From positions 69,845-133,844 of the forward strand of contig CAWJEP010000005.1 of NCBI GenBank assembly GCA_963841935.1: 64,000 nucleotides of DNA, in the 5' to 3' direction. This DNA comes from an uncultured bacterium (GTDB taxonomy: Bacteria > Patescibacteriota > Minisyncoccia > Phycocordibacterales > UBA6065). Made by a program: the position numbers and the translations under genes. Below the pieces are notes generated by a model. It was not told the origin of the DNA. It saw nothing but the letters and a program-made list of their open reading frames with translations, and made no database searches. Each line of letters starts with the position of its first letter. Position 1 is the stretch's first letter. Positions 42,970 through 64,000 of this stretch are shown piece by piece.

Positions 42970-44702
42970 ATGTCGAGCGAAGTAGAACAAATAAAAGAAA
43001 GATTGAATATCGCCGATGTCGTCGGCGGTTATCTCAAGCTTGAAAAAGCAGGTCAAAACTTCAAAGCCAAGTGTCCTTTTCACAACGAAAAGACGCCGAG
43101 CTTTTTTGTCTCGCCCGACAGAGGAAGTTATTATTGTTTCGGCTGCGGCGCGCACGGAGACATTTTTTCTTTCGTTGAAGCTTTTGAGGGAGTTGATTTC
43201 CGCGGCGCCCTGAAAAGCTTGGCGGCGAAAGCCGGCGTGGAATTAAAAGGAGGAGACAGGACGGGCGACAACAAGAAAGAAAGATTATACGCCGCCATGG
43301 AAGCCGCCGCCGAATTCTTCGAAACGGAACTTTCGAATAATTCGGCGGCTCGGGATTATGTTTTATCCCGCGGTATTACGGAAAAAACTATTCATTCTTT
43401 CCGAATAGGCTACGCGCCGTCAGAATGGCGGACGCTTAGAACGCATCTTGAAGCAAAAAAATTCGGCATAAACGAACTTTTTGCCGCCGGGCTCGTCAAG
43501 AAAAATGAAAAAGGCGATTTCTACGATGTTTTCCGCGGACGAGTGATGTTTCCGATTGCCGACTCATCCGGCCGCGTCGTGGCTTTCAGCGGTCGGACGC
43601 TCGATGAAAAAGAAAATCCGCCAAAATATTTCAACACGCCGGAGACGGAACTTTATTCGAAATCCCATACGCTTTTCGGTCTCGATAAAGCCAAATCTTC
43701 GATTAGGAAATTCGACCACGCTATTTTGGTCGAAGGTCAGATGGATTTGGTGATGTCTCATCAGGCGGGATTTACCAACACGGTCGCCGTTTCCGGCACG
43801 GCTCTTTCGGAAAACGCCGCCGACGAAAGCGCGTCCGGAATTTCTCTCATCACGCGCTTTCGAAAAATATCAAAATCGCCTTCGACCCGGATGAAGCGGG
43901 AATCAAAGCGGCGCTTCGCGCCGCGCGAATCGCTTTGTCCCTCGGTATGGATGTCAAAATCGCGGCTGGATGTAAAAGGCGAAGATCCCGGCGGATACTA
44001 TCCGCCGAGACCCGAAAGCTTGGAAAGAGCTCTCGCGGCGGAAAAAATGGCGTCGTGACATTTCTCGTTGATTCGATCTTGGAAAAGACTAACGATTTGA
44101 AAAAAATCGCAATCGCCGTGAGAGAACAAGCTTTTCCGTTTATTGTTCTAATGGAAAACAAAACCGACAGGGATAGATTCGTGAAAGAGATTCACGAGAA
44201 GACCGGCATAAGCGAGACGGCGCTTTGGGAAGATCTGAAATCGACGGAAAAGCCGCTACGGAATTCGCCCGCGCCGTCGCCCGAAAACTCGCTTCGCTCA
44301 AACAGTTCTCGCTCCGCAGGCGCCGGTTTCTCCGCTTCCAACAGAGCACTAGGAATCTTGGCGCTCGTGTCGGAGAAAGGCGACGCGGCGGCATTCACTG
44401 AGAAATTAAAAGCCGCGTCGCCAAGCGATTTTGAGAGATTTGAGACGATGACAAAGGAGGAAAAAGGCGAACTCGCCTTCGAAGCGGAGGTATTGTATGA
44501 TGTGAAAGATTTGGAAAAAAATTTCGACGAACTCGTCCTTCACATAGAAGAAGGACGATTGGCGTCTCTTCTTGAACAAAAATTCGCGGATATTTATAAA
44601 TCTGAAAAAGAAAAAGATGTGGGCAAAGCCAAGACGCTTTTGAAAGAAGCCGGCGACATAATGAAACGAGTAAATGAAATAAAGCAAAAACTAAGAAAAT
44701 AA
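42970..44702 (+). CDS. dnaG: DNA primase DnaG, reading frame broken at three points (about 43865, about 43960, about 44050)
   Basis: Zn-ribbon [30 protein letters not shown]. The RNA polymerase domain is present. The TOPRIM motifs continue only by switching frames: ..GTALSEN..RFRK (frame 1), then [33 protein letters not shown] (frame 3), then [24 protein letters not shown] (frame 1), then [14 protein letters not shown] plus the C-terminal domain (frame 3). Two junctions sit in A-runs (cgaaaaata, ggaaaaaatgg). Confidence 0.75.
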
Positions 44703-45930: not shown

Positions 45931-46249
45931 TGCTGGGCGGAAAGTGGATAACCCCTCGCTTGCTTTTTAGAAGTAATTTCATTAAAATAGAAGAGTCTTT
46001 GAGCCCTTCAAAGAATAGATACTTGATTTATAGAAAAGAAATGCCCCCAAAGGCGGGGGCATTAGCTTGATTGCTCTGGCAACATTTCTAACAAAAACGT
46101 GGCGAGGTTCAGTTTCAAAGCTGACAGAAAAACTCGCAATGGTGTCTTAAGGCCTTAAGACTTCGAAAAGAATTGAATTCTACGAGCGACTTGCTGGTGC
46201 CTCTGTATTTGTGGGTATTTGCACCAATAAATTTAGGATATCATATTTT

Positions 46250-47731
46250 ATGACAATCTCCAAAACAGACTATCTCTTGTGGCGAGAGTGCAAGAAAAAT
46301 ACGTGGATAAAACTTCACAAACCGGAAATATTTTATGCGGTGGAGCTTTCCGATTTTGAAAAATCTATTATTGAAAGGGGGAATGAAGTTGAAGCAGAAG
46401 CACAGAAACGTTTTCCGACAGGAGTTTTGATTGAAGGTCGAGACGAACAGGCGCAAAAGCTCACGCAGAAATATATCGCCGACAAAGAGCGGACTCTTTT
46501 TCAGCCTGTGTTTCTCAAAGACGGTTTTCTCGCGGCACTCGATATTTTGCAATACGACAAAGAGACTGGGAAATATTCGATATTTGAAATCAAAGCATCG
46601 AATGATGTGGACGAGAAAACCCATCTTTATGACTTGGCTTTCCAAGTTGCTCTTCTCAAGAAATGCGGAATCAAAATCGATATCGCGAACATCATTCATC
46701 TCAACTCAAAATATGTGAGAAACGGCGAGCTAGATATCGAGAAACTTTTCACCATAAATAATCAGACGAAAGAAGTCGAAGAACTTCTGCCGAAAGTCGA
46801 ATTCGAAATGGAAGCGGCGAAAGAATATCTTTCGCAGGAAAAAGAACCTTCAGGATATTGTGATTGTGTCTACAAAGGCCGCTCGGCGCACTGCGCCACA
46901 TTTTCATATTCCAATCCGACCGTTCCTGAATACGGCATTCATGATATCGCTCGCATCGGTATGAGTAAGAAAAAACTCCAAGAACTCGCCGACAGAAGCA
47001 TTTTCAAAATTGAAGACCTGCCCGACAACATTGAACTTTCGGAAATCCAAAAGAATCAAGTCGATGCTTATATTTTCGACAGAGTTTCTATAAAGAAACT
47101 GGAGATTGGTCAGGAATTAAAAAATTTGGTTTTCCCTCTGTATTTTCTTGATTACGAAACATATCCGTCGGCCATTCCTCGGTTTGACGGCTTCTCGCCA
47201 TATCAGCAGATTCCTTTTCAATATTCGCTTCATATCGTCGAATCACCGGACGCGGAGCCGATTCACAAAGAGTTTCTTCATACGGGAAGTGACAATCCGA
47301 GCGAACATTTCGCCAAATCGCTTCAAAAACACATAGGTCCAAAAGGAAACATAATCGTCTGGAACAAAAAGTTCGAATGCAAGATAAACAACGAACTCGC
47401 CAAAAGGCTTCCGGAAACCAAATCTTCTATCGATGATTTAAACGCTCGCGTCTACGACCTTATGGATATTTTTTCCAAACAATTTTATGTTCACAAGGAT
47501 TTCAAAGGTTCGACATCGATAAAATATGTTTTGCCGGTTCTCGCACCGGAACTTTCGTACAAGAAACTAGAAATCCAAGAAGGCGGCACCGCGTCGCAAA
47601 AATGGAATGAGATTACGACTTGTGAAATGGATCAAAAAGTAAAAAAAGAGATCGCGGAAAATTTAAAAGAATATTGCAAACTAGACACATACGCGATGTA
47701 CGCCATTTGGAAACATCTTTTTGAGTTATAA
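46250..47731 (+). CDS. DUF2779-family protein (Cas4/RecB-like PD-(D/E)xK nuclease N-domain plus RNase H-like exonuclease C-domain)
   Basis: A Cys cluster (CDCVYKGRSAHC) typical of Cas4/RecB-like nucleases. The characteristic LYFLDYETYPSAIP (FLDFET) motif of DUF2779. Start at ATG 46250. Confidence 0.55.
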   Translation: MTISKTDYLLWRECKKNTWIKLHKPEIFYAVELSDFEKSIIERGNEVEAEAQKRFPTGVLIEGRDEQAQKLTQKYIADKERTLFQPVFLKDGFLAALDILQYDKETGKYSIFEIKASNDVDEKTHLYDLAFQVALLKKCGIKIDIANIIHLNSKYVRNGELDIEKLFTINNQTKEVEELLPKVEFEMEAAKEYLSQEKEPSGYCDCVYKGRSAHCATFSYSNPTVPEYGIHDIARIGMSKKKLQELADRSIFKIEDLPDNIELSEIQKNQVDAYIFDRVSIKKLEIGQELKNLVFPLYFLDYETYPSAIPRFDGFSPYQQIPFQYSLHIVESPDAEPIHKEFLHTGSDNPSEHFAKSLQKHIGPKGNIIVWNKKFECKINNELAKRLPETKSSIDDLNARVYDLMDIFSKQFYVHKDFKGSTSIKYVLPVLAPELSYKKLEIQEGGTASQKWNEITTCEMDQKVKKEIAENLKEYCKLDTYAMYAIWKHLFEL

Positions 47732-47739
47732 TTTACTTT

Positions 47740-48456
47740 ATGCAACTCATTTTTTTAGACACGGAGACGACGGGCAACGACGCGGCAAAAGACCGGCTTT
47801 GTCAGATCTGCTATAGGATTGGCACAGAAACGAAAACGGAATATTTCAAACCGCCAGTGCCAGTATCGGTCAAAGCGATGAGCATCACGCATATCACGAA
47901 CAAAATGCTTGCGGACAAAGAGCCATTTATCGCAAGTAAGATGTATAAAGAACTTGAGAAACTTCTTCCGAAAAATATTTTGGTCGCTCACAACGCCAAA
48001 TTCGATATAGCAATGCTTTTCGCCGAAGGAATAAAGGTCAAAGATTTCATCTGCACATTGCGTGTTGCCAGAAATCTAGATACTGACAATGTAATACCCG
48101 AATACAATCTGCAGTATTTGAGATATTATCTAGATCTTGAAGTGGCAGGAACGCCACACGACGCGGAATCGGATGTCAACGTCCTTGAAGCCGTTTTCAA
48201 CAAATTGCTTGAAAAAATTATGGAGAAAATTCCAAATCGTGAAAAAGCCATCGAGGAAATGGTGAAAATATCAAGCAATCCGGTGTTATTCAAAAAAATA
48301 AATTTCGGTAAATACAAAGACAAAGACGTTGAAGAAGTTTTAAAAGCCGATCGTCGCTATCTCGAATGGTTACTTGCCGAAAAACGCAAAACTCCGGAAC
48401 TCGAAGAAGATTGGATTTATACGTTGGAAAATTATCTGGGACGGAAGACGGTCTAA
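47740..48456 (+). CDS. DnaQ-like 3'-5' exonuclease (DEDDh, ExoX-like) with C-terminal DUF3820-like KGK domain
   Basis: Exo I motif FLDTETTG, Exo II motif VAHNAKFD, Exo III motif PHDAESD. The C-terminal NFGKYKDKDVEEVLKADRRYLEWLL resembles the exodeoxyribonuclease X C-terminal/DUF3820 domain. Confidence 0.65.
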   Translation: MQLIFLDTETTGNDAAKDRLCQICYRIGTETKTEYFKPPVPVSVKAMSITHITNKMLADKEPFIASKMYKELEKLLPKNILVAHNAKFDIAMLFAEGIKVKDFICTLRVARNLDTDNVIPEYNLQYLRYYLDLEVAGTPHDAESDVNVLEAVFNKLLEKIMEKIPNREKAIEEMVKISSNPVLFKKINFGKYKDKDVEEVLKADRRYLEWLLAEKRKTPELEEDWIYTLENYLGRKTV

Positions 48457-48458
48457 AT

Positions 48459-49256
48459 TTATTTAACCAAATTTTTCCAATATCTTTCTAAATCTTCCGA
48501 AACGCTTTCGTTATTGGTAGATCCTTGTGGTTGAGCAACGACAAAATCTTTTTTCCATACCTCATATCCTTTCGGAAATGTCTTGCTAAAGATGTCCGAA
48601 TATCGCTCAAATCTTTCCTTAAGACTTAGACTCTCGTTATACCTTTCAAACAGCACATAATACGCTAAATCATTTTCTTTAAACCATTTAACTGCATTTT
48701 TCTCTCCCGTCCATGGAATATTACGTAATGAGAAATAGCAGCATATTAGATTACTCATACTATATAAAAGTCGAATTTCTAACGCTTCATGATAAATCGG
48801 GTCTTTCGAATCAAAATATCTTTTGTTTGCTACGTAGTTATAGTTTGCATTTTGCCAGAAGTTATATTTTTCTGAGAATGGCACATTAATGACCATGTCT
48901 TTGAAACCTCTTTCAATAAGGGCCGATGTTTTTCCTGATTTATCAAATTTTATATCAGCTTTTTGTAACCATACAGGTAAAGTTGAATTACCGTTAGCCA
49001 CAAATTCCACATGGTTATCAAGAAAGTTTCTGACCTTATCTAAATCAAGATGGTCGAAGAAATATATATCAGCGAAAGTTTCATCTATATACGTAAAAAC
49101 AGACTGTATAGTCTTATATTTTGCTTTAAGAATAACTATAAGATCAATATCACTGGATGATCCAGCCTTTCTTGTTCCGTGAGAACCTGTAAGAAAAACA
49201 CAGTCTACATTTTCATTCTTCTTTAGTTTCTCTATGACCTGATCTAGAGAAAGCAT
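48459..49256 (-). CDS. Pol-beta-superfamily nucleotidyltransferase (ANT/Lnu-like) in a low-GC patch
   Basis: N-terminal NTase signature FLTGSHGTRKAGSSSDIDLIVIL (GS...G.....SDxDL). At 265 aa it is about the size of aminoglycoside or lincosamide nucleotidyltransferases. The gene is visibly more AT-rich than its flanks. Confidence 0.5.
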   Translation of the reverse strand: MLSLDQVIEKLKKNENVDCVFLTGSHGTRKAGSSSDIDLIVILKAKYKTIQSVFTYIDETFADIYFFDHLDLDKVRNFLDNHVEFVANGNSTLPVWLQKADIKFDKSGKTSALIERGFKDMVINVPFSEKYNFWQNANYNYVANKRYFDSKDPIYHEALEIRLLYSMSNLICCYFSLRNIPWTGEKNAVKWFKENDLAYYVLFERYNESLSLKERFERYSDIFSKTFPKGYEVWKKDFVVAQPQGSTNNESVSEDLERYWKNLVK

Positions 49257-49260
49257 AATT

Positions 49261-49953
49261 TTAGGAGTTAAGGTTGCTTAAGATTATTTGAATATAATTA
49301 TTGACTGCGTCATAAGGAATCGCTCCGTCGGTGTTGGCGATGTTGCCTTTTGGCGTGACGAAAACGGTGTAAGGGGTGCCCTGACCGCCGGCGTTTATGG
49401 CGTCTTGGTAATCGGCTTGGACTTTTGCCGCTTCTTTACCGCTTGAGAGACATTCATTGAAAGCCGTAACGTTTAGACCGACATCGCTCGCGATTTTCGG
49501 AAGTTCCGCCGGGTCGAGTCCGTCATTGGATGGCGTGACGGAAAATATTTCATCGAGATAATTCCAGAAAGTGTTATTTCCGCCAAGGTCGGCGGCACAC
49601 TCCAATGCCTCTGCTTCGTTTGTCGATTTCGAGTGAAGCGGAAACGAACGATAAACCCAGGCGACTTCGCTCGTTGAAGCGTATTCGCTGTAAATATCTT
49701 TGAGAGTCTGGTGGAATTGCTTGCAATAAGGGCACTCGGTGTCGGAATAATCTATTATTTTTATCGGAGCGTTTATGCTGCCGAGAATATGGTCCTCCGC
49801 CGTTACTGGTCGCACCGTGATACCGGCGTCAGGCGTCGCGGTTTGTGCCGGAATGACGGTAGTCGAAGATTTTCCTCCCACAAAATACACGGCAATGGCG
49901 ATAAAAACTCCCGCGACGACGATGGCTATGGGCACGAGGAGGTTCTTATTCAT
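49261..49953 (-). CDS. DsbA-like thiol:disulfide oxidoreductase (signal-anchored thioredoxin fold)
   Basis: N-terminal TM helix (LLVPIAIVVAGVFIAIAVYFV) and the CxxC active site DTECPYCKQFHQTL. Start at ATG 49953. Confidence 0.7.
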   Translation of the reverse strand: MNKNLLVPIAIVVAGVFIAIAVYFVGGKSSTTVIPAQTATPDAGITVRPVTAEDHILGSINAPIKIIDYSDTECPYCKQFHQTLKDIYSEYASTSEVAWVYRSFPLHSKSTNEAEALECAADLGGNNTFWNYLDEIFSVTPSNDGLDPAELPKIASDVGLNVTAFNECLSSGKEAAKVQADYQDAINAGGQGTPYTVFVTPKGNIANTDGAIPYDAVNNYIQIILSNLNS

Positions 49954-49960
49954 ATTTACA

Positions 49961-50539
49961 TTATAACCCAAGAGAGAAGTTCATCGAACTGTTACCGACT
50001 TTTTCCCAATGTGAAGTGTCTAGTTTGATTTCCAGAATTTTTCCGCCGAAATCTTTGTATTTTAGCGAGCCGTTTTTCAAAGCGTATTCGTAAAGCTCCT
50101 TTGTGATTTTCACGTCGTCAATACAGTAATCGATGATTTTCTGAATTTCGCCTTGTTTCCACCAAGTGATGGCTTCCAGACCGTGACCACTTTTGTTTTT
50201 TCCTAGCGTGGCTTCGGTGACATTGTCGAGCTTTACGCGCCGCCCGAGCGATTTGTGTATTTCTTTCAAAAGGTCCACGCTTTTTATTTTGCCGAGGTCA
50301 CCGTGATAATACTTGTTCAAAAGAGGAATATCGAAATGGTCGCTGTTGAATCCTATCAAGATATCCGTGTGTTCGAGAATCGGCCAGAGGTTCTTGAAAT
50401 CTTTTTCAAGATAACTCGTGTAAGAATCCGTCTCCGAGTCGTGAATGCACACGACGGAAATATCGAGAGCCGACGGGTCGCTCGAGCCGACGTCTTGAAA
50501 AAGATTTTTTGTTTCCACGTCGAAGACGATTTTTCTCAT
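49961..50539 (-). CDS. DEDDy-type 3'-5' exonuclease domain protein
   Basis: VFDVETKN (Exo I), GFNSDHFDIPLL (Exo II) and YCIDDVKITKELY (Y-x3-D Exo III). Confidence 0.55.
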   Translation of the reverse strand: MRKIVFDVETKNLFQDVGSSDPSALDISVVCIHDSETDSYTSYLEKDFKNLWPILEHTDILIGFNSDHFDIPLLNKYYHGDLGKIKSVDLLKEIHKSLGRRVKLDNVTEATLGKNKSGHGLEAITWWKQGEIQKIIDYCIDDVKITKELYEYALKNGSLKYKDFGGKILEIKLDTSHWEKVGNSSMNFSLGL

Positions 50540-53805: not shown

Positions 53806-53846
53806 TATTAATGTTTATCAATGTATAGAAATCATTAGTATTTTTA
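53806..53846 (+). promoter_or_regulatory. Conserved ~40-bp upstream element, copy 1 (shared with 61297-61337)
   Basis: ATTAATGTTTATCAATGTATAGAAATCATTAGTATTTTT is identical in both copies. Copy 1 lies about 160 nt upstream of the giant-gene start, in an AT-rich intergenic region. Confidence 0.4.
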
Positions 53847-54005: not shown

Positions 54006-57000
54006 ATGGATGACACTGTTCTGATCGAAGGGAAAACACATATTTCATCGAGACGCGCCGCGAAATTAAGCGGTTACACTCAAGATTACGTCGGCCAGCT
54101 TGTTCGCGGCAAAAGAGTCACGGCCAAAAAAATTGGACGCTCGTGGTATATACAAGAAATTTCGTTCCGAGATTATATTTCCGGTAATCCTGTATTAATA
54201 AAAAAAGAATTCTCGAATGACCGAGAAAGGTTAATAAATCGCGAAAAAGTAGAGAAAGAAAAGGTCAGTGGTTACCATCCTGAAAAAATCAGACACGGAA
54301 TACTTCACAGATTTCAGAAATTGACAGCGTTTACCCTCTCCCTCCTCATCGTCTCCTCAGCCATTGCCTTCGCTAATACGGTCAGTCCTCAAGAAGTGGC
54401 GGGATATGTTTCCTCCACAACGGATAAAGGATTGGCCATGGTTTCCTCGGCTGAAGCACTTCTTCGTCAAAGCGCGGACTTGGCCAATTTATACGGCAAA
54501 GAAAACACGGCGCTCGTGGCCGCCTCGGGCGAAAATCCTCTTTTCATCGGAGCCCAAACGGTGGCCCTCGGCGTCTACGAAACATTCCATCCGGCGATTC
54601 AAAACGCCGAATATACTTTGGCGGCGCTCTTTGCCCCGAGAGTTTCTAACATCGCCGTCAGTAACGTTTCGGAATCTCCGATAACCATTAATCTCGCTTC
54701 GAGCACGACGCCAATGACAAGTTCTTCAAGCGCTCTCGCCGTTTATACTCCGCCCGTCACCACGGCAAATCCCGTCATATCTTCGCCAAACAACGTCTAT
54801 TACCAGACTCTCGGCGAGACGCAAGACGAAGTCCAAAGCCAAATAGCCGCCGCCATAGAGCCCCTGATTTTCCAGATTAACGCTTTGGGATACAGAGGAG
54901 GAACGACGCAGTCAAACGTCCAAAACGTCTACGACAACATCGATTTCAGCCGCATTAACGGAGCAAACATCGACAAAAGCTTCGTGAGCGATTCGGCCTT
55001 TACCGGCGGAACCATTAGCGGCGCGAGTATTACCAACTCATCGATTGACGTTCTAAACGTCGGAAACGGTCTCTCGAACATCGCCGGCGATTTGACCGTT
55101 TCCGGCACGACAACAGTCAACAATCTCTTTGCCGCTAATTCTTTGACGAGTAATTCAACCACGACCTCTGCCACCTCGACTAATCTCTACGCCGCGAACG
55201 TCGTGTTGGCAAACGCCACGACGACAAATCTCTTTACCGACTCACTCAACGCTTTGTCGGAGACAATCGATAGCATCACTTCAAATGTCGCGACCATATT
55301 CGGCCTGACCGCGACGAATGCCACGACGACCTCCGCCACGACGACGAATGAATTCGACGCAAACCTCGTCGCTTCAAACGCCACGACGACGGGGAACGCG
55401 TACGTCGGCGGCAATCTCACGGTGGGCGGCAATTCAGTTACCCTGGGCAACTCGAGCGCCAACACGCTCGTCGTCAATTCCGCCGTCGGCTCAAACCTCA
55501 TTCCGAACCAAAACGCCACGTACGACATCGGCTCTCCGGCCTATTACTGGAACAACGAATACGTCGCCACCCTAAACGTCAACAATCTCTCGGCCGCTTC
55601 TTCGACCATCGGCGGAACGACAGACAGCAATTTCACCATTAACTCCGGCAACGGCACTCCCGACACCGAGAGTATGTCACTCACATTCTTCCGAGGCACC
55701 GTGGTGCCAAACGCCGTCATCGCTTGGAACTCTACGACCAAACGTTTCGAATTAAACCAAAGCGCCTTCATTCAAAACGGCTCTACAAACCTTCTTTCCT
55801 CGCCTACGCTTTCGCTCGAGGGTCAAGCGGGACAAACCGGAGACATTTTCGATATCGCGAGCTCAACCGGACAAAACTATTTCAATATCTCCGCCACTGG
55901 CACGACAAACACTTTGGGACTAACTTTCACGAGCGCAACGGGAACCTCCGCCACCACGACCAACTTCTACGCTTCACTTTTGAATTCCATAACGGGAACG
56001 ATTACCAACTTCACTTCAAACTTGGCTACGATTTTCGGTCTGACCGCGACGAATGCCACGACAACGAACGCCACGACGACAAACCTAGTGGTCTTCAATT
56101 CTCCAGTCGCTCCGGCTTTCATCGCCACCTCGACTACGGCTGTGTCTTCGCTTCAACAACTTCTCGTTAACGCAAGTACCACTCTCCAAAACTTCACGTT
56201 CCAAAATGCCACGGGAACAAACGCCACGACGAGCACTCTTTACGTTTCCGGTCAGTCAATCCTTGCGGCGACGGGAGGGGATGTGGGAATCGGACTTACG
56301 AACCCTTCTTATCCGCTCGATATTTATAACGCGGCTAGTGGTGCTTTGAGATTGAATGATTCGAACAATGCAGCCATTATTTCTACCGTAAAAGAATTGG
56401 CCGCGACAAATTTAAATTTTACTGTCAGCGGAACCAATGCTATGACAATAAGATATAACGGAAACATCGGTATCGGCACGACGACACCTTGGGCGTTCTT
56501 CTCTATAAACCCGAACGCCAACTCGCAAGGTCCGCTATTCGTTGTCGGCTCATCGACCGCCACACAATTTATCATAAGCAACACAGGTTTGGTCGGCATC
56601 GGCACGACTTCACCTCTTAGCAAGTTTGATATTGTCAGCAACTACAACGATACCACCGATACTTTCCGAATCGATGCTCCAGACCCGGGAGATTATCATT
56701 TGACTATAAATCCGTATGTGGTCGGCAACGGCAACGTCGGATACAAATTTAAAACCACCGATACCGCGGTCACGGTCACGGCCATGGCTATCACGGGTAC
56801 TGGAAACATAGGTATCGGCACGACGACGCCGGACGCCACGCTCTCCTTAAACGGAAGCGGCGGCTCATACATAGACTTTGGAAATAGCGGGCCAGTCAAG
56901 GCGTACATCGGAACATCGGGAATATTCGGCGCGGCAAGCACGGATGATTTGCGCGTTCGTTCCGATGGTCCAAACATTGATTTTGGTTTTTCTGGACAAA

Positions 57001-60000
57001 TAACTGATGTCATAAATAGTTCCGGTTCAATGGGTATCGGCACGACAACGCCGAATGCTAAACTGGATGTTCTTGGAACCACTGGTAGTCCTGCTACAAG
57101 CGGTTACACCCAAAATGGCATATTCCAGATTGGAGCTTCTATTGGAGGCAATGGTTTGGACTTTGGAGTCTTGGCCGGAGCGCCATACTCGACCTGGATG
57201 CAGTCAGGTTATTTGGGCAACTATTCTCTCGCGGCTTACTATCCAATATCTCTGAACCCTCTTGGCGGCAATGTCGGTATCGGGACGACTAATCCGACGG
57301 CGAAACTTGAAATCGCCGGCACTGGCAGCACACTTGTCCAAGCGAGCACGACCGATGTGACAACTTCTTCCGCTTCGGGATTTCAATCTCTAAGTGACGC
57401 GAGCATACTGACCATGCAAAATCACGGAAGCGCGAGAGTCGTGTCGCGTTATGGACTCACGCTTGGAGGTTGGACAGAGATAACGGCACAGAACAATTTC
57501 GGAACGAACAACGGCATTGTTATCGGAACTCAAAGCGCGGTACCCATCGTCTTCGGTACGAACAATACCGAATATATGCGCATTACCGGCGCCGGCAACG
57601 TCGGCATCGGGACGCCGGGGCCTGGTTACAAGTTAGATGTTCAAGGCAATGCTGGTATTGTAACTGTAAACACTAATGGCTCCGTGTCTGCAGGTGGACA
57701 ATATGTCTCTGGTATTGGAAGTTTTGCATCCGCAAGCGATGGAACTGATGTTGTTTTACAAGCTGGAGCTACGACACTTATGACTTTGAAGTCCGGCGGC
57801 AACGTCGGCATCGGGACGGCGAGTCCTCAAGTCAGGACTCATATTGTCGGTCCGTCGTTAACTGAAAGTTCCGAGACTTCGTATGCCTTATGGGTGGCCA
57901 ACACCAACGCTCCGACGAAAGCGTTGATTATGGGTTACGACACTACCGCCGATATCGCCGTCATCAATGCCGTGCAGCAAGGGGTAACTTGGAAGAACAT
58001 CGCGATGCAAACCAATGGCGGCAACGTCGGCATCGGAACTACGAACCCGGGAGCGACCTTGGATGTGAACGGGTATGGACGCTTCGTCAGCCCCAACGGA
58101 GGATCAACCGGCGCCGTTATAATTAGAGACGCCAGCGGGAACCCTAATGCCGCGTATTTGCAGTTCACCAATAATGCAGACTCCGTGGAGTACGCAGACA
58201 TTCGTGGGCTCGCCGCCGGAGGAATGGCTCTAAACGGCGGTAACGTCGGCATCGGGACGACGAATCCTTCCCAAAGATTGTCGGTGAACCAATCACTCGC
58301 TATCACGAATGTGGGCGGCGGCGGTGCCCAGTATCTGCTCATGGGCAATCAAGATTCTGCTGGCGTCAATAACCCCGTAGTACTGCAAGCAGCTAACGGT
58401 GACTTGAGCATCGGTCACGGGTCCAGCTGGACGGACCCGGTGGGGGGCACCTTCTCATCAAATGTAACATTCAAGAACGGTGGCAACGTCGGCATCGGGA
58501 CGACGAATCCAGCGTATAAGTTGGACGTGAATGGTACAGCAAACATTGGTGGTAATTTTACTGTCGGTGGCAACTTGACTATAAACGGAAGTTACAATAC
58601 AAGTTTGTATAGCCTTACAACAAGCAGAAGCGGAGGAGTGAATTATGCTTATCCTGATGTTGCGGGGGCGTCGGTTGGTTTAGTGCTTGGCGGAACCAGT
58701 AATGGTAATGGAACAATTGCTTTGAATACCACTGGTAGCAACACAACACCGACGATGTATCTTTCAACAACCGGCAACGTCGGCATCGGGACGACGGCGC
58801 CGGAGTCAAATTTGACTGTACAAAATACTAATGCAGGTGGTCGAGGAGGTGAAATAAGTATCACAAATCTCTCCAATACGATCAATTCAGAAGCGGCGTT
58901 AAATTTTGGTGTTGATAACTCCAGCTACAATGCCGACTCCGGTAACGGTCAGATTAAAGTTGTTAATATGGATGGAGCGACAATGAAATCGGATATGGTA
59001 TTTTCAACTTGGAACGGTTCTGCTTTTGGCGAGAGAATGAGGATACAATCAGGTGGCAACGTCGGCATCGGACGACAGTCCCGCTCAATAAATTGGATAT
59101 TGCAGGGGCTTCTGCGATTGGCAGTGATTATGCAGGTGCTTACACGGCTCCAACTAACGGTGCAATAATAGAAGGCAACGTCGGCATCGGGACGGCGAGT
59201 CCAGGGCAAAAACTTGATGTAAACGGTAATATCAATTTTGCGGCTGCGGGATATATTACCAACAACAATAGCTCGTACTTTGGCGCAGGTAACGTACTGG
59301 TGTCAGGCGCGGCATCAACGGATACAGGTATTTTGACAAGCGGGAATATTGTTTTTGGCACCAATGCCGGCGCGGGGAATACTGAGCGCATGCGCATCAC
59401 TTCGACCGGCAACGTCGGCATCGGGACGACGAATCCGCAGTCGCCACTTCAACTGGGTTCAGTGTTTGCATTACAACAAGATGTAAATAGTGGTTATATT
59501 GGCGCAAACTTTGGCGGAATAATAATTAGTTATATCAAGAGCCAATATGCCAACCAAATACAGTTTGACTCTGCACTGGGTAATATCAATTTTAAAGTAG
59601 CACCATCCGGAACTGCTGGTAACCCTATCACTTACACAACAGCAATGGCGATAAATTCTTCCGGCGAGGTCGGTATCGGAACAACGAATCAAAACAATCC
59701 ATTGGAAGTCGACAGTTCGGCGGGCGCTGAGACCGGAATCAATATATTCAATTCAAATATAAACGGCGGGGCGCAGCTTAGTCTTCACAGTATCTCAACC
59801 GGCACCGGTCCTTTTGGCGGCGCTACAATTTCGTATTCAAACGTGGCCGGGCCATACGCAAACGCCCTGGTCATAATGAATACATACTCCGCTCCATTAA
59901 TACTTGGTACCAACAACGCCAATAGATTCGAGATAGACAATAACGGCGACGTGGGTGTTGCAATACTATCCGCGGGTACATCCAATTCTCTCTGCTACAA

Positions 60001-60978
60001 CAACATAGTCAATCCCGGTTACAATTCCATCGGCACGTGTTCCTCCGACGAAAGAGTTGAAACAAAATATTACTCTCGCTCTCCGACAACACCGGACTCT
60101 CGGTGATTAACGCTTTAAATCCGGTGTCCTTCAATTGGAATCCGGCGTTTTCAAACGACCAGAGCGAACAATACGGATTTATAGCGCAGGACATTCAAAA
60201 GGTTTTGCCGAGCTTGGTCTCGACGAGTTCTCCGACGGCTCTCACGCCTGACGGCACGTTGTCGCTCAACTACAACGGACTCTTCGCTCCGATAGTCAAA
60301 TCGATTCAGGAACTTGACGCCGATTTGTCTTCGACAACGCAAGCGGTATTCGCTCTGCAGACAGAAGTGGCCGGCATAGAGAATGTTTTGAGTAGCAATT
60401 ACTCGACATCGTCGGCGAGCGTCTCAACGACTACCGTCTCCAACGTAGTTACAAACTGGTTCTCGTCTCTAGGCGTGGCTATCGAAAATGGAGTATTTCA
60501 TTTTGGAAACCTCATCGCCGACACCTTGACCGCCACGACGGAAGTGGTGAACACGGTCAACGCGGAGACTATTACAACGGCAAACTTTACCGTCGAGCCG
60601 GCCGCGGCCGCGATGTCATCATCGGGTATTACTATTTACGACCGCGCTTCGGGCAAACCGACTTGTCTCTTCGTGAACAACAACACAATAGAAGAAACAG
60701 CCGGCGCCTGCGGCACGTTTGATTCTTCGTCAAACAACAATTCAAGCAATCAAAATAATTCCGGAAACAATCCTACGGACGGCAATGGGGGAACGGACAC
60801 TTCGACTTCGACTCCATCCACGGACACCTCGACGTCCACTCCTTCGTCCGACGTCTCGACATCCACTCCGTCAACAGACGTTTCCACTTCCACTCCGTCC
60901 ACTGATACTTCGACTTCCACGCCTTCGACCGACACCACGGACGCTTCATCCACCGACGCTACATCGACAACGCCGTAA
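54006..60978 (+). CDS. Giant (~2,300 aa) surface fibre-like protein: N-terminal excisionase-type HTH-like module, TM helix, GNVGIGTTNP-type repeats, C-terminal Peptidase_S74 intramolecular-chaperone domain, Ser/Thr/Pro-rich tail. The frame is broken twice (about 59075 and about 60060).
   Basis: The N-terminus ISSRRAAKLSGYTQDYVGQLVRGKRVTAKKIGRSWYIQEISFRDYI fits the HTH_17/excisionase pattern (..A..LG.s...v.rlvr.G.l.a.KiGR.Wri). A single TM helix (LTAFTLSLLIVSSAIAFA) follows. Then more than 1,500 aa rich in T/N/S/G with about 14 repeats of GGNVGIGTT(N/T)P..KLDV roughly every 77 aa. The continuation ORFs 59009-60106 and 60103-60978 keep the repeats. They end in NKILLSLSDNTGLSVINALNPVSFNWNP...QYGFIAQDIQKVLPSLVS...LSLNYNGLFAPIVKSIQELDADL, which is the tail-fibre/endosialidase chaperone (Peptidase_S74) signature. 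The frame breaks coincide with homopolymer tracts (ggcatcgg-acg versus ggcatcggGacg, gaaaca versus gaaaaca). Confidence 0.6.
54333..55913 (+). repeat. 1,581-bp block identical to 61830-63410 (copy 1)
   Basis: Direct comparison shows the two segments are the same at constant offset 7,497 from 54333/61830 up to a T/C difference at 55914/63411. The six-frame ORF track gives identical ORF translations in both copies. Confidence 0.8.
60790..60960 (+). repeat. Tandem 27-nt (9-aa TSTSTPSTD-like) Ser/Thr/Pro-rich coding repeats at the C-terminus of the giant protein
   Basis: TDTSTSTPSTDTSTSTPSSDVSTSTPSTDVSTSTPSTDTSTSTPSTDTTDASSTDATSTTP, encoded by near-perfect tandem copies of acttcgacttccac(g/t)ccttc(g/a)(a/t)c(c/a)gac. 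Confidence 0.6.
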
Positions 60979-61068: not shown

Positions 61069-61143
61069 TCCGGGATAGCTCAGCGGTAGAGCAGTCGCCT
61101 GTTAAGCGATTGGTCGGTGGTTCGATCCCACCTCCCGGAGCCA
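61069..61143 (+). tRNA. tRNA-Asn (anticodon GTT)
   Basis: TCCGGGATAGCTCAGCGGTAGAGCAGTCGCCTGTTAAGCGATTGGTCGGTGGTTCGATCCCACCTCCCGGAGCCA. Anticodon stem GTCGC/GCGAT, loop CTGTTAA. The 3' CCA is encoded. Confidence 0.8.
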
Positions 61144-61296: not shown

Positions 61297-61337
61297 TTAT
61301 TAATGTTTATCAATGTATAGAAATCATTAGTATTTTT
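61297..61337 (+). promoter_or_regulatory. Conserved ~40-bp upstream element, copy 2
   Basis: The same ATTAATGTTTATCAATGTATAGAAATCATTAGTATTTTT, about 142 nt upstream of the second giant-gene start (61479). Confidence 0.4.
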
Positions 61338-61478: not shown

Positions 61479-64000
61479 ATGGAGAGCAAGGTTACTATCG
61501 CCGGAAAAATATATATTTCGGCAAAGTCGGCGGCAAAAATTACCGGCTATGCCCAAGACTACGTCACACGTCTTATTAGACTAAAAAAATTTTCCGCGCA
61601 AAAAATCGGCCGGTCTTGGTATGTCGAAGAAGATTCTTTTTTGAAATTCTGGACGGAACACAAAGAAACGCTTTCCGATTCTGCTTTGAAACAAAGCGAT
61701 ATGTCGGCTATCCGACCGGCAAATGTTCCTCAATCTTTTTTGCCTCCCGAAAAAGAATATGTTTCTCTGCAAAAACCGGAAATCAGAAAAAAACCGGCGC
61801 AGCTCAAAATCCCGAACTTTGTAACTCTGACCCTCTCCCTCCTCATCGTCTCCTCAGCCATTGCCTTCGCTAATACGGTCAGTCCTCAAGAAGTGGCGGG
61901 ATATGTTTCCTCCACAACGGATAAAGGATTGGCCATGGTTTCCTCGGCTGAAGCACTTCTTCGTCAAAGCGCGGACTTGGCCAATTTATACGGCAAAGAA
62001 AACACGGCGCTCGTGGCCGCCTCGGGCGAAAATCCTCTTTTCATCGGAGCCCAAACGGTGGCCCTCGGCGTCTACGAAACATTCCATCCGGCGATTCAAA
62101 ACGCCGAATATACTTTGGCGGCGCTCTTTGCCCCGAGAGTTTCTAACATCGCCGTCAGTAACGTTTCGGAATCTCCGATAACCATTAATCTCGCTTCGAG
62201 CACGACGCCAATGACAAGTTCTTCAAGCGCTCTCGCCGTTTATACTCCGCCCGTCACCACGGCAAATCCCGTCATATCTTCGCCAAACAACGTCTATTAC
62301 CAGACTCTCGGCGAGACGCAAGACGAAGTCCAAAGCCAAATAGCCGCCGCCATAGAGCCCCTGATTTTCCAGATTAACGCTTTGGGATACAGAGGAGGAA
62401 CGACGCAGTCAAACGTCCAAAACGTCTACGACAACATCGATTTCAGCCGCATTAACGGAGCAAACATCGACAAAAGCTTCGTGAGCGATTCGGCCTTTAC
62501 CGGCGGAACCATTAGCGGCGCGAGTATTACCAACTCATCGATTGACGTTCTAAACGTCGGAAACGGTCTCTCGAACATCGCCGGCGATTTGACCGTTTCC
62601 GGCACGACAACAGTCAACAATCTCTTTGCCGCTAATTCTTTGACGAGTAATTCAACCACGACCTCTGCCACCTCGACTAATCTCTACGCCGCGAACGTCG
62701 TGTTGGCAAACGCCACGACGACAAATCTCTTTACCGACTCACTCAACGCTTTGTCGGAGACAATCGATAGCATCACTTCAAATGTCGCGACCATATTCGG
62801 CCTGACCGCGACGAATGCCACGACGACCTCCGCCACGACGACGAATGAATTCGACGCAAACCTCGTCGCTTCAAACGCCACGACGACGGGGAACGCGTAC
62901 GTCGGCGGCAATCTCACGGTGGGCGGCAATTCAGTTACCCTGGGCAACTCGAGCGCCAACACGCTCGTCGTCAATTCCGCCGTCGGCTCAAACCTCATTC
63001 CGAACCAAAACGCCACGTACGACATCGGCTCTCCGGCCTATTACTGGAACAACGAATACGTCGCCACCCTAAACGTCAACAATCTCTCGGCCGCTTCTTC
63101 GACCATCGGCGGAACGACAGACAGCAATTTCACCATTAACTCCGGCAACGGCACTCCCGACACCGAGAGTATGTCACTCACATTCTTCCGAGGCACCGTG
63201 GTGCCAAACGCCGTCATCGCTTGGAACTCTACGACCAAACGTTTCGAATTAAACCAAAGCGCCTTCATTCAAAACGGCTCTACAAACCTTCTTTCCTCGC
63301 CTACGCTTTCGCTCGAGGGTCAAGCGGGACAAACCGGAGACATTTTCGATATCGCGAGCTCAACCGGACAAAACTATTTCAATATCTCCGCCACTGGCAC
63401 GACAAACACTCTGGGTCTGACCTTTACGAACGCCACGGGAACCTCCGCTACTACGACCAATCTCTACGTTGCAAACGTCATATCGGCAAGCGCCACAAGT
63501 ACGAACTTCTACACCTCTCTTTTAAATTCCATAACGGGAACAATCGCAAACTTCACGTCAAACTTGGCGACAATTTTCGGACTAACTGCCACCAACTCCA
63601 CGACGACAAACGCCACCACTACGAATCTCGTGGCATTCAACGCTCCCGTCGCTCCGGCTTTCATCGCCACCTCGACTACGGCCGTTTCTTCCTTCCAACA
63701 ATTCTTGGTTAACGGAAGCACCACTCTCCAAAACTTCACCTTCCAAAACGCCACGGGCACGAGCGCGACGACGACGAACTTCTTCTCCACGAACGCCGTC
63801 CACACGAGCGCTACGACGACGAATCTCTTCGCGACAAATTTCAACGCGACGAACGAAATTCTTACGAATCTCATCGCAACTTACTCAACTACCACTTACG
63901 CCACTTCAACAAATCTTTACACTTCCGGTCAGACGATTCTCGCGGCGACAGGGGGCAACGTCGGCATCGGGACGACGAATCCGACGCACCTACTTGCAGG
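61479..64000 (+). CDS. Paralog of the giant fibre-like protein (HTH-like N-terminus, TM helix, shared 1.58-kb block, then diverged repeats), 3' partial at the window end
   Basis: MESKVTIAGKIYISAKSAAKITGYAQDYVTRLIRLKKFSAQKIGRSWYVEEDSFLKFW... aligns residue-for-residue with the N-terminus of copy 1 and is followed by the same TM helix. It is absent from the ORF track because it runs off the window without a stop. GNVGIGTTNP repeats resume at 63957. Confidence 0.55.
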   Translation, partial: MESKVTIAGKIYISAKSAAKITGYAQDYVTRLIRLKKFSAQKIGRSWYVEEDSFLKFWTEHKETLSDSALKQSDMSAIRPANVPQSFLPPEKEYVSLQKPEIRKKPAQLKIPNFVTLTLSLLIVSSAIAFANTVSPQEVAGYVSSTTDKGLAMVSSAEALLRQSADLANLYGKENTALVAASGENPLFIGAQTVALGVYETFHPAIQNAEYTLAALFAPRVSNIAVSNVSESPITINLASSTTPMTSSSSALAVYTPPVTTANPVISSPNNVYYQTLGETQDEVQSQIAAAIEPLIFQINALGYRGGTTQSNVQNVYDNIDFSRINGANIDKSFVSDSAFTGGTISGASITNSSIDVLNVGNGLSNIAGDLTVSGTTTVNNLFAANSLTSNSTTTSATSTNLYAANVVLANATTTNLFTDSLNALSETIDSITSNVATIFGLTATNATTTSATTTNEFDANLVASNATTTGNAYVGGNLTVGGNSVTLGNSSANTLVVNSAVGSNLIPNQNATYDIGSPAYYWNNEYVATLNVNNLSAASSTIGGTTDSNFTINSGNGTPDTESMSLTFFRGTVVPNAVIAWNSTTKRFELNQSAFIQNGSTNLLSSPTLSLEGQAGQTGDIFDIASSTGQNYFNISATGTTNTLGLTFTNATGTSATTTNLYVANVISASATSTNFYTSLLNSITGTIANFTSNLATIFGLTATNSTTTNATTTNLVAFNAPVAPAFIATSTTAVSSFQQFLVNGSTTLQNFTFQNATGTSATTTNFFSTNAVHTSATTTNLFATNFNATNEILTNLIATYSTTTYATSTNLYTSGQTILAATGGNVGIGTTNPTHLLA
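61830..63410 (+). repeat. 1,581-bp block identical to 54333-55913 (copy 2)
   Basis: See copy 1. After 63410 the copies stay similar but diverge. Confidence 0.8.

Follow-up and report, generated by a model that had tools for sequence, protein, structure and literature searches.

Results and Discussion

What kind of protein joins an excisionase-type winged helix, a membrane helix and a phage tail-fibre-like ectodomain, and is it encoded by one gene at all? Both questions are raised by positions 54006–60978 (+) of the 64,000-nt stretch analysed here (the window). With a probability of about 0.7 we read the locus (Table 1) as a single gene, broken by three single-base indel errors, whose product is a type-II membrane-anchored surface fibre; the bacterium is assigned to the Patescibacteria (CPR) through its relatives.

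Table 1: Features of the fibre locus and its surroundings; aa numbers refer to the corrected protein.
Feature	Position	Strand	Evidence
37-nt upstream element TAATGTTTATCAATGTATAGAAATCATTAGTATTTTT, candidate promoter/operator of copy 1	53809–53845	+	conservation
Excisionase-type winged helix (HTH_17-like), aa 1–65	54006–54200	+	HTH_17 profile, AF2/Foldseek
Basic cytoplasmic linker, aa 66–105	54201–54320	+	charge; ortholog comparison
Single TM helix (signal anchor), aa 106–126, LTAFTLSLLIVSSAIAFANTV	54321–54383	+	hydropathy, charge
Juxtamembrane ectodomain and stalk, ATTTN-type degenerate repeats, aa 127–756	54384–56273	+	composition, DNA repeats
Fibre shaft, 17 GxVGIG(T)TxPxxKLxV units, aa 757–2011, across frame break 1	56274–60037	+	motif, profiles
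Frame break 1	59064–59082	+	one G absent near 59071, GGCATCGG^ACGACAG
Peptidase_S74 core (intramolecular chaperone, auto-processing)	60044–60219	+	PF13884
Putative S74 nucleophile Ser	60044–60046	+	partner Lys in SSDERLK
Frame break 2	60056–60072	+	two surplus bases, G 60056 and A 60072, S74 first strand
Helical part of chaperone domain, LNYNGLFAPIVKSIQELDADL...EVAGIENVL	60220–60390	+	PHROG alignment, ortholog model
Post-chaperone extension, conserved VTNWFSSLGVAIENGVFHF... and small two-Cys beta module GITIYDRASGKPTCLFVNNNTIEETAGACG	60391–60786	+	homologs
Ser/Thr/Asp/Pro low-complexity tail, TSTSTPSTD repeats, and stop codon	60787–60978	+	composition
tRNA-Asn (GTT), between paralogs	61069–61143	+	ARAGORN; Rfam RF00005, 68.6 bits
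37-nt upstream element, second copy (DNA family D10)	61301–61337	+	identical to 53809–53845
Tandem paralog (copy 2), past window end	61479–64000	+	translation, identity profile, HTH_17

One gene, probably interrupted by sequence errors

The locus comprises 6,973 nt, a length that 3 does not divide, and is spread over three ORFs, each in a frame of its own (54006–59168, 59009–60106 and 60103–60978; 1,720 + 365 + 291 aa). Three single-base corrections join them into one protein of 2,323 aa, which agrees with the single protein of ~2,300 aa in the original prediction, although the deposited sequence holds it in three pieces. At both ORF junctions the pieces are contiguous and the repeat and S74 reading carries on across them, which supports the assignment of the three ORFs to a single gene. 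At the first break the DNA reads GGCATCGG^ACG as compared with GGCATCGGGACG or GGTATCGGCACG in 10 other repeats, and an inserted G restores GNVGIGTTVPLNKLDIAG. Across the second break S74 is read in three frames as SSDER, LKQNI and LSLSDNTGLSVINALNPVSFNW; repair by two deletions gives a domain score of 63 bits versus 48.3 bits for one insertion, and SSDERLK is intact at the corresponding site of the ortholog P0003. The breaks are most likely assembly errors, since two other genes of the window, rpoC and dnaG, likewise contain frameshifts, in dnaG three or more, and since the syntenic P0003 is one intact ORF of 2,096 aa.

As the catalytic lysine is out of frame in the deposited sequence, copy 1 might also be a decaying pseudogene with real indels and a lost S74 catalytic lysine, leaving copy 2 as the only functional one. 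We consider this unlikely. The deposited sequence does contain the breaks, the only database entry for copy 1 is its 1,720-aa product (P0002) and the tandem paralog could render copy 1 redundant, but the essential genes rpoC and dnaG bear like indels within 15 kb and no further decay is seen, with zero in-frame stops and an intact repeat and S74 consensus past each break. Furthermore, nt 54330–55908 of copy 1 (1.58 kb) are 100% identical to copy 2, which argues for ongoing conversion and not for drift.

Paralog, ortholog and upstream element

The tandem paralog from 61479 went unmentioned in the original prediction. Its layout comprises HTH_17 (61479 to ~61660), a TM helix at 61818–61880, the same stalk and a first GNVGIG unit at 63951, and an HMM from A1 gave two matches within the window, copy 1 and copy 2 only. 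The genes flanking the locus are housekeeping genes and none is of phage type, as had been predicted. Synteny with P0003 extends over dnaG, rpoD, DUF2779, exoX, a dsbA-like gene, RNase H, truB, RRM and typA, followed by the giant gene. Copy 1 and the ortholog agree at ~29% overall and at 88% in the HTH, with a sharply diverged shaft. The 37-nt element is identical ahead of copies 1 and 2, with 0 such cases expected by chance, and it is also kept upstream of the ortholog in L002, where the surrounding intergenic DNA has diverged.

A predicted cytoplasmic winged helix and a single membrane anchor

The N-terminus had been predicted as an HTH_17 domain with a TM helix right behind it. An HTH_17-like domain is present, but in copy 1 it scores 13–19.7 bits (profile positions 7–50 of 51) and thus stays below the Pfam gathering score of 27, which copy 2 exceeds with 27.8 bits; PF12728 is matched by 32 of 39 homologous N-termini. 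An AF2 model of the HTH (69 aa, pLDDT 87.9) yielded Xis, BldC, RdfS and RacA as top Foldseek matches and also TraN, with weak E-values of 0.04–0.5 and probabilities of 0.9–1.0. The copy-1 HTH is evidently under purifying selection, dN/dS against the ortholog being 0.16 in the HTH and 0.81 in the linker. This weakly conserved linker of ~40 aa separates the HTH from the TM helix, so the two are not directly adjacent, but exactly one strongly hydrophobic segment was found: aa 106–126 is the sole 19-residue window in 2,323 aa with a Kyte–Doolittle value above 1.4 (maximum 1.81). On its N-side 23 K+R stand against 13 D+E, and the 60 aa beyond the helix contain 3 K+R, a distribution that agrees with the positive-inside rule. 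An N-in, C-out (type-II) topology with one TM helix is therefore supported by the sequence, and as HTH and linker are N-terminal to this helix they are expected to be cytoplasmic.

The order of an N-terminal DNA-binding-type fold, one TM helix and an extracytoplasmic domain would also fit a contact-sensing membrane-tethered regulator of ToxR/CadC-like topology, with the ectodomain as sensor and the winged helix as transcription factor. The strong constraint on the HTH and the 37-nt element kept upstream of both paralogs and the ortholog are in line with this idea, and MYRF unites the same three kinds of parts, a DNA-binding domain, S74 and a TM helix (PMC3742440, PMC3742443). We nevertheless regard it as quite unlikely: S74 and HTH would lie on opposite sides of the membrane, which makes a MYRF-style release of the HTH by cleavage impossible, a site for regulated intramembrane proteolysis is not evident, and the occurrence of the same module on small proteins disfavours sensing as its general function.

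The HTH-TM module in Patescibacteria

The original prediction regarded the architecture as most unusual. It is not unique, as at least 20 other database proteins have the HTH-TM N-terminus together with S74, and the HTH-TM module is a Patescibacteria-wide anchor carried by many giant surface proteins. The A1 profile matched 7,860 cluster representatives at E ≤ 1e-10, with a TM segment in 140 of the 150 top matches, and the best 80 loci of a reference-genome scan all belong to Patescibacteria; among 2.9 million viral contigs (IMG/VR) searched the HTH module was absent. The module also heads many giants that are not fibres, and it occurs as a separate small protein, usually encoded directly upstream of a giant HTH-TM gene: at 59 of 71 scan loci another HTH-bearing ORF, usually a giant one, lies at most 1.5 kb downstream of a small HTH-TM gene. 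The extracellular part of the small proteins has only ~50 residues and some relatives are of the type 2xHTH-TM. In most Paceibacteria sampled one small-plus-giant pair is found after secA, obg and gatB, a conserved core position.

Such a common module, and the core pair in particular, might point to a structural envelope component (an S-layer-like or wall-spanning fibre), with HTH-TM as the standard Patescibacteria root for large envelope proteins. For the locus analysed here this is quite improbable, since it lies at another site, which is lineage-specific and carries tandem paralogs that recombine, the divergence of its shaft from the ortholog relative to the HTH is typical of receptor-binding proteins, and its nearest solved relatives are adhesive fibres.

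Stalk and fibre shaft

The ~2,200 aa outside the membrane anchor region are rich in Thr, Asn, Ala and Gly. The stalk (T 21%, N 13%, S 12%, A 11%) is Thr/Asn/Ala-rich and gave zero matches when searched against Pfam, PHROG and PDB; DNA repeat families D5, D7 and D8 are located in the stalk and D1, D2, D4 and D9 in the shaft. The ~14 GGNVGIG..KLDV units of ~77 aa that had been predicted correspond well to the 14 units found with a strict motif (17 with a loose one); the spacing is 40–109 aa with a median of ~76. Tail-fibre PHROGs match the shaft (phrog_9942, 2.7e-34; phrog_18345, 4.9e-25), tblastn with the shaft returned 166 phage records including tail fibres of cyanophage, pelagiphage and roseophage, and the PDB matches included Bdellovibrio Bd2133 (8ond, 9.4e-5) and 8ojn. 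These matches make the ectodomain a homologue of both phage tail fibres and Bdellovibrio MAT fibres, and together with the N-in single-TM topology the phrog_9942 and tblastn matches support the proposed tail-fibre-derived, membrane-anchored protein.

The homology of shaft and S74 to tail fibres could also indicate a particle component, i.e. the tail fibre gene of a phage, prophage, tailocin or contractile injection system. We regard this as very improbable, as the protein starts with a cytoplasmic domain and a TM anchor and not with a particle-attachment domain, the neighbours are dnaG, rpoD, truB, typA and a tRNA with a syntenic position in a related genome, IMG/VR yielded no copy of the HTH module, and many giants other than fibres begin with the same N-terminal module.

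Chaperone domain and C-terminal extension

The S74 chaperone domain was predicted correctly, PF13884 being matched above the Pfam threshold (uncorrected 37.8 bits, profile positions 20–57; corrected 63 bits, positions 1–57 of 58), and S, D, R and K of the S-D-x-R-x-K motif are invariant in 14 homologs. The C-termini of tail-fibre PHROGs can be aligned up to the helical part, which forms a long helix (pLDDT 70–88) in the ortholog model. For the ortholog C-terminal model, which is of moderate confidence (mean pLDDT 60), the best Foldseek match was the MyRF ICA (7dc3, 3e-5) followed by the EndoNF chaperone (3gw6). A Ser/Thr/Pro-rich tail is present past the chaperone as predicted (27% Ser, 34% Thr, 12% Asp, 9.5% Pro) and is almost the same in P0003, but the tail begins only ~190 aa after the S74 Pfam match, so S74 is not terminal, unlike in phages. 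The extension is kept in P0003 and P0030 and has no phage-fibre counterpart, as phage fibre profiles stop at the chaperone; its D..(S/T)G.P.C...G.C module is also found 74–120 aa before the C-termini of other Patescibacteria giants. If retained, the ~190 structured residues and the tail would imply a different maturation scheme.

Proposed function

A membrane-anchored trimeric adhesion fibre is thus the best reading of our analysis. After Sec export S74 would nucleate a homotrimer and fold the preceding beta-helical shaft, and self-cleavage at Ser2014 would free a C-terminal fragment of ~310 aa (chaperone, two-Cys module and S/T/P tail), thereby exposing the fibre tip. This scheme of trimerisation and cleavage is inferred from S74 of endosialidase, the T5 tail fibre, MYRF and Bdellovibrio Bd3182, and its end product would be a long trimer whose three TM helices anchor the fibre in the cell membrane. 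Most likely the fibre would recognise and adhere to the surface of a partner or host cell, with variation supplied by the tandem paralog, the gene-conversion tract and the divergent shaft. The cytoplasmic winged helix may, as our best guess, bind DNA at the membrane, which could serve autoregulation via the conserved upstream element or a nucleoid tether; alternatively it might dock to a cytoplasmic protein partner.

Comparison with known systems

ToxR/CadC and RodZ are likewise bitopic: a single TM helix connects their N-terminal cytoplasmic HTH to an extracytoplasmic domain, and the HTH of RodZ binds a protein (MreB) and not DNA. These proteins share the membrane topology of the protein described here, but their HTHs are of OmpR-type and Xre-type and their outer domains are small sensors or scaffolds, not fibres of 2,000 aa. 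Fold and profile similarity link its HTH to Xis, RdfS, BldC, RacA and TraN/AM32 (Pfam HTH_17), and tandem HTH copies per chain occur in TraN/AM32 as well as in the small 2xHTH-TM relatives. In contrast, these excisionase/MerR-type proteins are soluble and lack a TM or extracellular fusion.

To our knowledge MYRF is the only characterised chain that unites a DNA-binding domain, S74/ICA and a TM helix. Its order is DBD-ICA-TM and cleavage frees a DNA-binding trimer, whereas the order HTH-TM-fibre-S74 would place cleavage outside the cell and leave the HTH unreleased. The DNA-binding folds differ too: that of MYRF (myelin regulatory factor), which acts as a membrane-bound transcription factor (PMC3742440, PMC3742443, PMC8326128), is of Ndt80-type, and the one here is of excisionase-type.

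Phage fibres and tailspikes (EndoNF 3gw6, the T5 L-shaped fibre, PHROGs 9942, 18345, 5668 and 1980) have homologous shaft repeats and S74, and the same logic would apply: the N-terminus is proximal, the tip lies at the distal C-terminal end, and the chaperone is cleaved once the trimer has formed. Unlike them, the gene lies outside a phage genome and its product begins with a membrane anchor and not with a virion adaptor, and whereas the chaperone is the last domain in phage profiles, more sequence follows it here.

For the TM anchor with its small N-terminal domain the original prediction saw no characterised counterpart. Of this HTH-TM anchor we found no description in the searchable literature; the fibre part has a characterised analogue in the MAT (mosaic adhesive trimer) fibres of Bdellovibrio bacteriovorus such as Bd2133 and Bd3182, surface-exposed trimeric adhesins of which many terminate in a self-cleaving S74 domain with SDxxxK (PMC10769870). 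[quoted passage not shown] Both have the xMxIxxxGNVGIGTxxPxxKLxV beta-helix unit in common, with 8ond and 8ojn as direct sequence matches, and like the protein described here MAT fibres are cell-encoded homologues of phage tail fibres, found in a bacterium that itself lives on other bacteria.

Reading frame and anatomy of the giant gene

The giant gene (copy 1) had been predicted to be a single open reading frame, which does not hold for the deposited sequence: translation with table 11 gives three ORFs in three frames (Table) and the length of the interval is no multiple of three. Only the first of these fragments is present as a public protein record (P0002, 1,720 aa). The first break is located within a repeat, which reads GGCATCGG-ACGACAG compared to GGCATCGGGACG or GGTATCGGCACG in ten other repeats, and insertion of one G leads back to GNVGIGTTVPLNKLDIAG. 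The second break lies in the first strand of the S74 domain, where the three-frame reading is SSDER / LKQNI / LSLSDNTGLSVINALNPVSFNW, and deletion of G 60056 and A 60072 results in SSDERLKQNILSLSD. The product of the repaired gene has 2,323 aa.

We consider assembly errors the most likely origin of these breaks and a true pseudogene, as which the interrupted frames might also be read, quite improbable, because rpoC and dnaG in the same window are equally defective while a related metagenomic contig (L002) carries an intact DnaG (568 aa) and the giant gene as one 2,096-aa ORF with SSDERLK in frame (its product P0003 is the ortholog used below). The frameshifts in rpoC and dnaG thus point to local indel errors in the assembly. 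L002 shows about 79–81% DNA identity to the window and shares the gene order dnaG, rpoD, DUF2779, ExoX-like exonuclease, DsbA-like, RNase H-like, truB, RRM protein, typA and giant gene. Where same-strand ORFs overlap in the rest of the window, dnaG is the only split gene, and all others are separate genes or spurious ORFs. An alternative genetic code was rejected, as long ORFs read through with table 11. Programmed frameshifting and phase variation were rejected as well, because the breaks are located at a GG/GGG run and at two single bases and because this defect is also seen in essential genes. Part of the low-GC stretch listed in the Table, including the minus-strand ORF, has no DNA match in L002; by eye the product of this ORF resembles a nucleotidyltransferase.

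Table. Features of the giant gene region and of related loci (window positions unless stated otherwise; aa numbering of repaired copy 1)
Feature	Position	Remark
rpoC	42621-42926	frame lost at about 42745, in the universally conserved SFQxTTR... region
dnaG	42970-44702	at least three frame changes between 43.8 and 44.1 kb; Toprim domain truncated
Low-GC stretch	46000-50000	GC about 0.40 vs about 0.49 elsewhere
Minus-strand ORF	48459-49256 (-)	265 aa
37-nt element TAATGTTTATCAATGTATAGAAATCATTAGTATTTTT	53809-53845; 61301-61337; L002 9800-9836	identical in all three places
Copy 1, whole interval	54006-60978	6,973 nt
Copy 1, first ORF	54006-59168	1,720 aa
Copy 1, second ORF	59009-60106	365 aa
Copy 1, third ORF	60103-60978	291 aa
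Tract shared by copies 1 and 2	54330-55908; 61803-63381	1.58 kb, 100% identical, from the TM helix on
Two-Cys module	60625-60714	G-I-T-I-x-D-x-x-S/T-G-x-P-x-C ... G-x-C, then low-complexity tail
tRNA-Asn	61069-61143	
Copy 2 (tandem paralog)	from 61479	extends beyond the window
Excisionase-type winged helix	aa 1-65	
Basic linker	aa 66-105	
TM helix	aa 106-126	sole hydrophobic segment of the whole protein
Juxtamembrane region and stalk	aa 127-756	stalk rich in Thr/Asn/Ala
Shaft	aa 757-2011	17 G-x-V-G-I-G units, consensus xMxIxxxGNVGIGTTxPxxKLxV; spacing 40-109 aa, median about 76
S74 chaperone domain	aa 2014 to about 2130	
Post-S74 extension	about 190 aa	conserved; ends in a small two-Cys beta module
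Tail	final 74 aa	27% Ser, 34% Thr, 12% Asp, 9.5% Pro
TTATCCACA upstream of giant genes	L004 11437; L009 11287; L048 11437; L066 11371	examples
TTATCCACA upstream of secA	L005 4655; L049 4569	about 300 nt upstream

The anatomy of the repaired protein agrees in substance with the features listed in the original prediction, with some corrections. HTH and TM helix are both found, but not next to each other, as the basic linker is placed between them; likewise the Ser/Thr/Pro-rich tail exists but is separated from the chaperone domain by the extension. The estimate of about 14 repeats corresponds to the 14 copies with the strict motif, and the loose motif gives 17. The TM helix reaches a Kyte-Doolittle 19-residue maximum of 1.81, nothing elsewhere exceeding 1.4, and is preceded by 23 Lys and Arg compared to three in the 60 residues after it, which gives an N-in, C-out topology. 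The juxtamembrane region and stalk are without a match in Pfam, PHROGs or PDB, and NCBIfam has no match for any segment of the protein.

Fibre shaft and S74 domain

The predicted tail-fibre character of the repeats was confirmed by matches to the PHROG tail-fibre families phrog_9942 (2.7e-34) and phrog_18345 (4.9e-25), and ten tail-fibre PHROGs match the S74 region with their extreme C-termini. A tblastn search led to 166 phage records, all below 36% identity and most of them tail fibres from cyanophages, pelagiphages, roseophages and Streptococcus phages. Using phmmer against the PDB, the repeats matched Bd2133 from Bdellovibrio (8ond, E 9.4e-5) and a second Bdellovibrio fibre (8ojn, 2.3e-3), the copy 1/Bdellovibrio alignment running over the shared unit xMxIxxxGNVGIGTxxPxxKLxV.

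The S74 domain at the C-terminus, also part of the original prediction, was recovered with the Pfam profile (PF13884, gathering score 22) before as well as after frame repair: the uncorrected sequence scores 37.8 bits over profile positions 20–57, the two-deletion repair 63 bits over positions 1–57 of 58 and a one-insertion repair only 48.3 bits. The motif SSDERLK, which is present in P0003, appears in copy 1 only once the extra G 60056 is removed, the deposited frame reading SSDERVETK, and an alignment of 14 Patescibacteria homologs shows its S, D, R and K to be invariant. For the structure of this region the C-terminus of P0003 was modelled, which is 51% identical to copy 1 in the S74 region (mean pLDDT 60; S74 core 70–88). 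The model has as top Foldseek matches the MyRF ICA (7dc3, E 3e-5) and the EndoNF chaperone (3gw6), and the ortholog is thus predicted to have the chaperone fold with its beta core and long helix. Among solved structures, the S74 region also has matches in a phage tail fibre (8jov) and in the distal subunit of a long tail fibre (6f45).

The two-Cys module and the tail following it are also present in L002, in two reference-genome loci (L037, L052) and in the database proteins P0004, P0029 and P0030. In several Patescibacteria giants the module is located 74–120 aa from the C-terminus, usually about 200–245 aa past S74. Past the S74 motif, the end of the 2,699-aa giant of the reference locus L004 (about 19250–19605) resembles by eye the start of a Hint/intein-type domain (CVVGDTKL...VVGDEIAALD...TTGNHPYLV).

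The N-terminal winged helix and its family

The original prediction had assigned the N-terminus to HTH_17 (PF12728). Copy 1 itself stays below the gathering score of 27 bits (13, 18.6 or 19.7 bits depending on the fragment), whereas copy 2 passes it with 27.8 bits and 32 of 39 homologous N-termini match at E≤0.01 (best 6.3e-11). Copy 1 is therefore a divergent relative of HTH_17 and not a threshold member, and what stands of the assignment is the fold and the family matches. The AF2 model (pLDDT 87.9) shows the element order E-E-H-H-E-E-H, and Foldseek found Xis (4j2n), BldC (6ama), RdfS (8dgl) and RacA (5i44) with a probability of 0.9–1.0, the E-values being weak (0.04–0.4) for such a small domain; TraN is also among the closest folds, and the TM-score, normalised by target, reaches up to 0.83. 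The domain is thus predicted to adopt a winged-helix fold of the Xis/BldC type. Xis, BldC, RdfS, RacA and TraN are all DNA-binding winged helices.

The comparison with P0003 shows the HTH to be under strong purifying selection, with a dN/dS of 0.16; the linker has 0.81 and the proximal ectodomain 0.32. The HTH carries a net positive charge and has a basic wing (AKKIGRSWY), both of which would suit DNA binding but are not diagnostic for it. We favour that the HTH binds DNA at the membrane, perhaps on the conserved 37-nt element upstream of the gene, the main alternative being that it docks a cytoplasmic protein as RodZ does.

Searching with the full-length protein we obtained 51 large proteins, nearly all from Patescibacteria where named. 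The HTH-TM module forms the start of 37 of them, with the consensus GKxYIS..AA...GYxxDY(V/I)..L.R.GK....IG..WY(V).E.SL..Y followed by the TM helix, and at least 20 of these HTH-TM-headed proteins also carry S74. Among 1.84 billion cluster representatives, a profile of the module matched 19,735 at E≤1e-3, of which 7,860 reach E≤1e-10. Most of the best 150 are about 320 aa long and have two HTH in tandem, one TM helix around residue 250 and about 50 residues outside; a few are giants of 1,974–5,533 aa, and 140 of the 150 show a TM-like segment. The module had no match in 2.9 million viral contigs and is found within the window in the two paralogs only.

Reference genomes, one per species, were scanned for such loci with a profile from a 10-sequence subset, as the 39-sequence alignment was too diverse. 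This confirmed 515 loci, the best 80 of which all belong to Patescibacteria. A small HTH-TM gene is complete in 71 of these 80, and in 59 of the 71 a same-strand HTH-bearing ORF starts within 1.5 kb downstream; nine of the downstream ORFs are complete (1,618–2,792 aa) and 42 leave the locus or contig, the longest with more than 3,000 aa. The giants have an HTH and a TM helix of their own. The typical arrangement in the 80 best loci (match at about 10001) is a small gene of about 250–300 aa with the giant gene 0.2–0.7 kb downstream. In the two loci we looked at, the block follows secA, obg and gatB (Pfam check in L004 only). Most of the 80 loci have an ORF of about 840 aa upstream, in the position of secA, again with the Pfam check in L004. 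A literature search, which was incomplete, led to no description of the HTH-TM module, of its distribution among Patescibacteria or of giant genes paired with it.

Tandem paralog and upstream elements

Copy 2 begins behind tRNA-Asn and its HTH is 45% identical to that of copy 1. The tract shared by both copies is bordered by 58–65% identity on the side of the HTH region and by about 81% with a 45-nt indel on the other. It looks like the result of a recent gene conversion, with an assembly collapse as the alternative origin of such an identical stretch.

The 37-nt element, none of which is expected by chance, precedes both paralogs and the ortholog by 140–200 nt, in otherwise diverged intergenic DNA. 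Two more blocks are also conserved, namely AAAGAGACCTG..GTTTTTC.AC and, at the start codon, AATAGAATTATG.CCAATGGA. Rfam has no family upstream of either paralog, and no sigma-70-like promoter stands out there above shuffled controls. In the related loci a perfect DnaA-box-like 9-mer, TTATCCACA, precedes the ATG of the giant gene by about 60–70 nt; it is single and lies almost always on the coding strand. Of 65 giant-gene upstream regions 38 contain it, compared to at most 7 in shuffles. It is followed by a conserved AGTTATTATTTAGTTAATTCGGnTATCCGAC-ATG and occurs also upstream of secA; the window does not contain it. This site looks like that of a promoter or regulator, and a reading as oriC was rejected because it is single, strand-specific and at a fixed distance from the start codon.

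Proposed mechanism and significance

Copy 1 is one gene with a single N-in anchor, a shaft homologous to the trimeric fibres of phages and Bdellovibrio and, after repair, the S74 catalytic motif, and its constrained cytoplasmic winged helix is common to a large family of Patescibacteria proteins. Following established S74 biology, the ectodomain would be exported and the S74 domain would nucleate a homotrimer, fold the shaft and then cut at Ser2014, freeing a C-terminal fragment of about 310 aa. What would be left is a long fibre held in the membrane by three TM helices, whose distal tip could then bind a partner cell. A receptor-binding role is in line with the rapid divergence of the shaft, with the conservation of the ends and with a tandem paralog that recombines.

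It is also conceivable, with a probability that we put at roughly 0.15, that a working DNA-binding winged helix at the cytoplasmic end of the fibre physically couples the giant surface proteins of Patescibacteria to DNA. If so, one version would be a cis autoregulation of very costly genes via the conserved 37-nt element and another a nucleoid tethered to the sites of host contact; the small protein with two HTH and a TM helix next to the giant genes would then be part of the membrane-DNA link, and the proteins would form a new class, restricted to the Patescibacteria radiation, of bitopic surface proteins that bind DNA.

Patescibacteria make up a large share of bacterial diversity. To our knowledge every cultivated member lives attached to another microbe, and we are aware of almost nothing beyond type IV pili on how they recognise and hold their hosts. 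Copy 1 and its family are concrete candidates, being giant fibres assembled from modules with which phages and Bdellovibrio recognise the surfaces of bacteria, and variable shafts together with recombining paralogs are as expected of host-range determinants. The HTH-TM module is an easily searched marker that might now be used to catalogue these proteins across genomes, which is useful because their genes are usually fragmented or labelled only as 'helix-turn-helix domain-containing protein, partial'. It also raises the question why a domain of DNA-binding type is kept under strong selection at the cytoplasmic end of surface proteins.

Comparison with known systems

The combination of a DNA-binding domain, S74 and a TM helix is also found in MYRF (PMC3742440, PMC3742443), where the domain order allows cleavage to free the DNA-binding part. 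In contrast, copy 1 has the order HTH, TM, S74, which places S74 on the opposite side of the membrane and is not that of a MYRF-type self-releasing protein. Copy 1 is homologous to the tail-fibre families of phages but not a virion component by its context: as originally predicted it is not flanked by phage structural genes, its neighbourhood consisting of housekeeping genes and being kept in the related genome, and it has an N-terminal membrane anchor.

The mosaic adhesive trimer (MAT) fibres are surface-exposed trimeric adhesins of the predatory Bdellovibrio, 13 of 21 of them ending in an S74 domain with SDxxxK and self-cleavage being shown for Bd3182 (PMC10769870). The shaft units of copy 1 are homologous to the solved MAT structures, its trimer being putative. 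As surface fibres from tail-fibre modules with an S74 end are thus already known in Bdellovibrio, the fibre part of copy 1 joins them as a further example from a different phylum. MAT fibres start with a signal peptide followed by a conserved beta-rich N-terminal domain of about 130 aa (PMC10769870), whereas copy 1, compared with this domain by its description only, starts with 105 aa of cytoplasmic HTH and linker and an uncleaved TM anchor. It is this anchor, an excisionase-type winged helix plus TM helix in place of signal peptide and docking domain, together with the extension after S74, that sets copy 1 apart from the described Bdellovibrio fibres.
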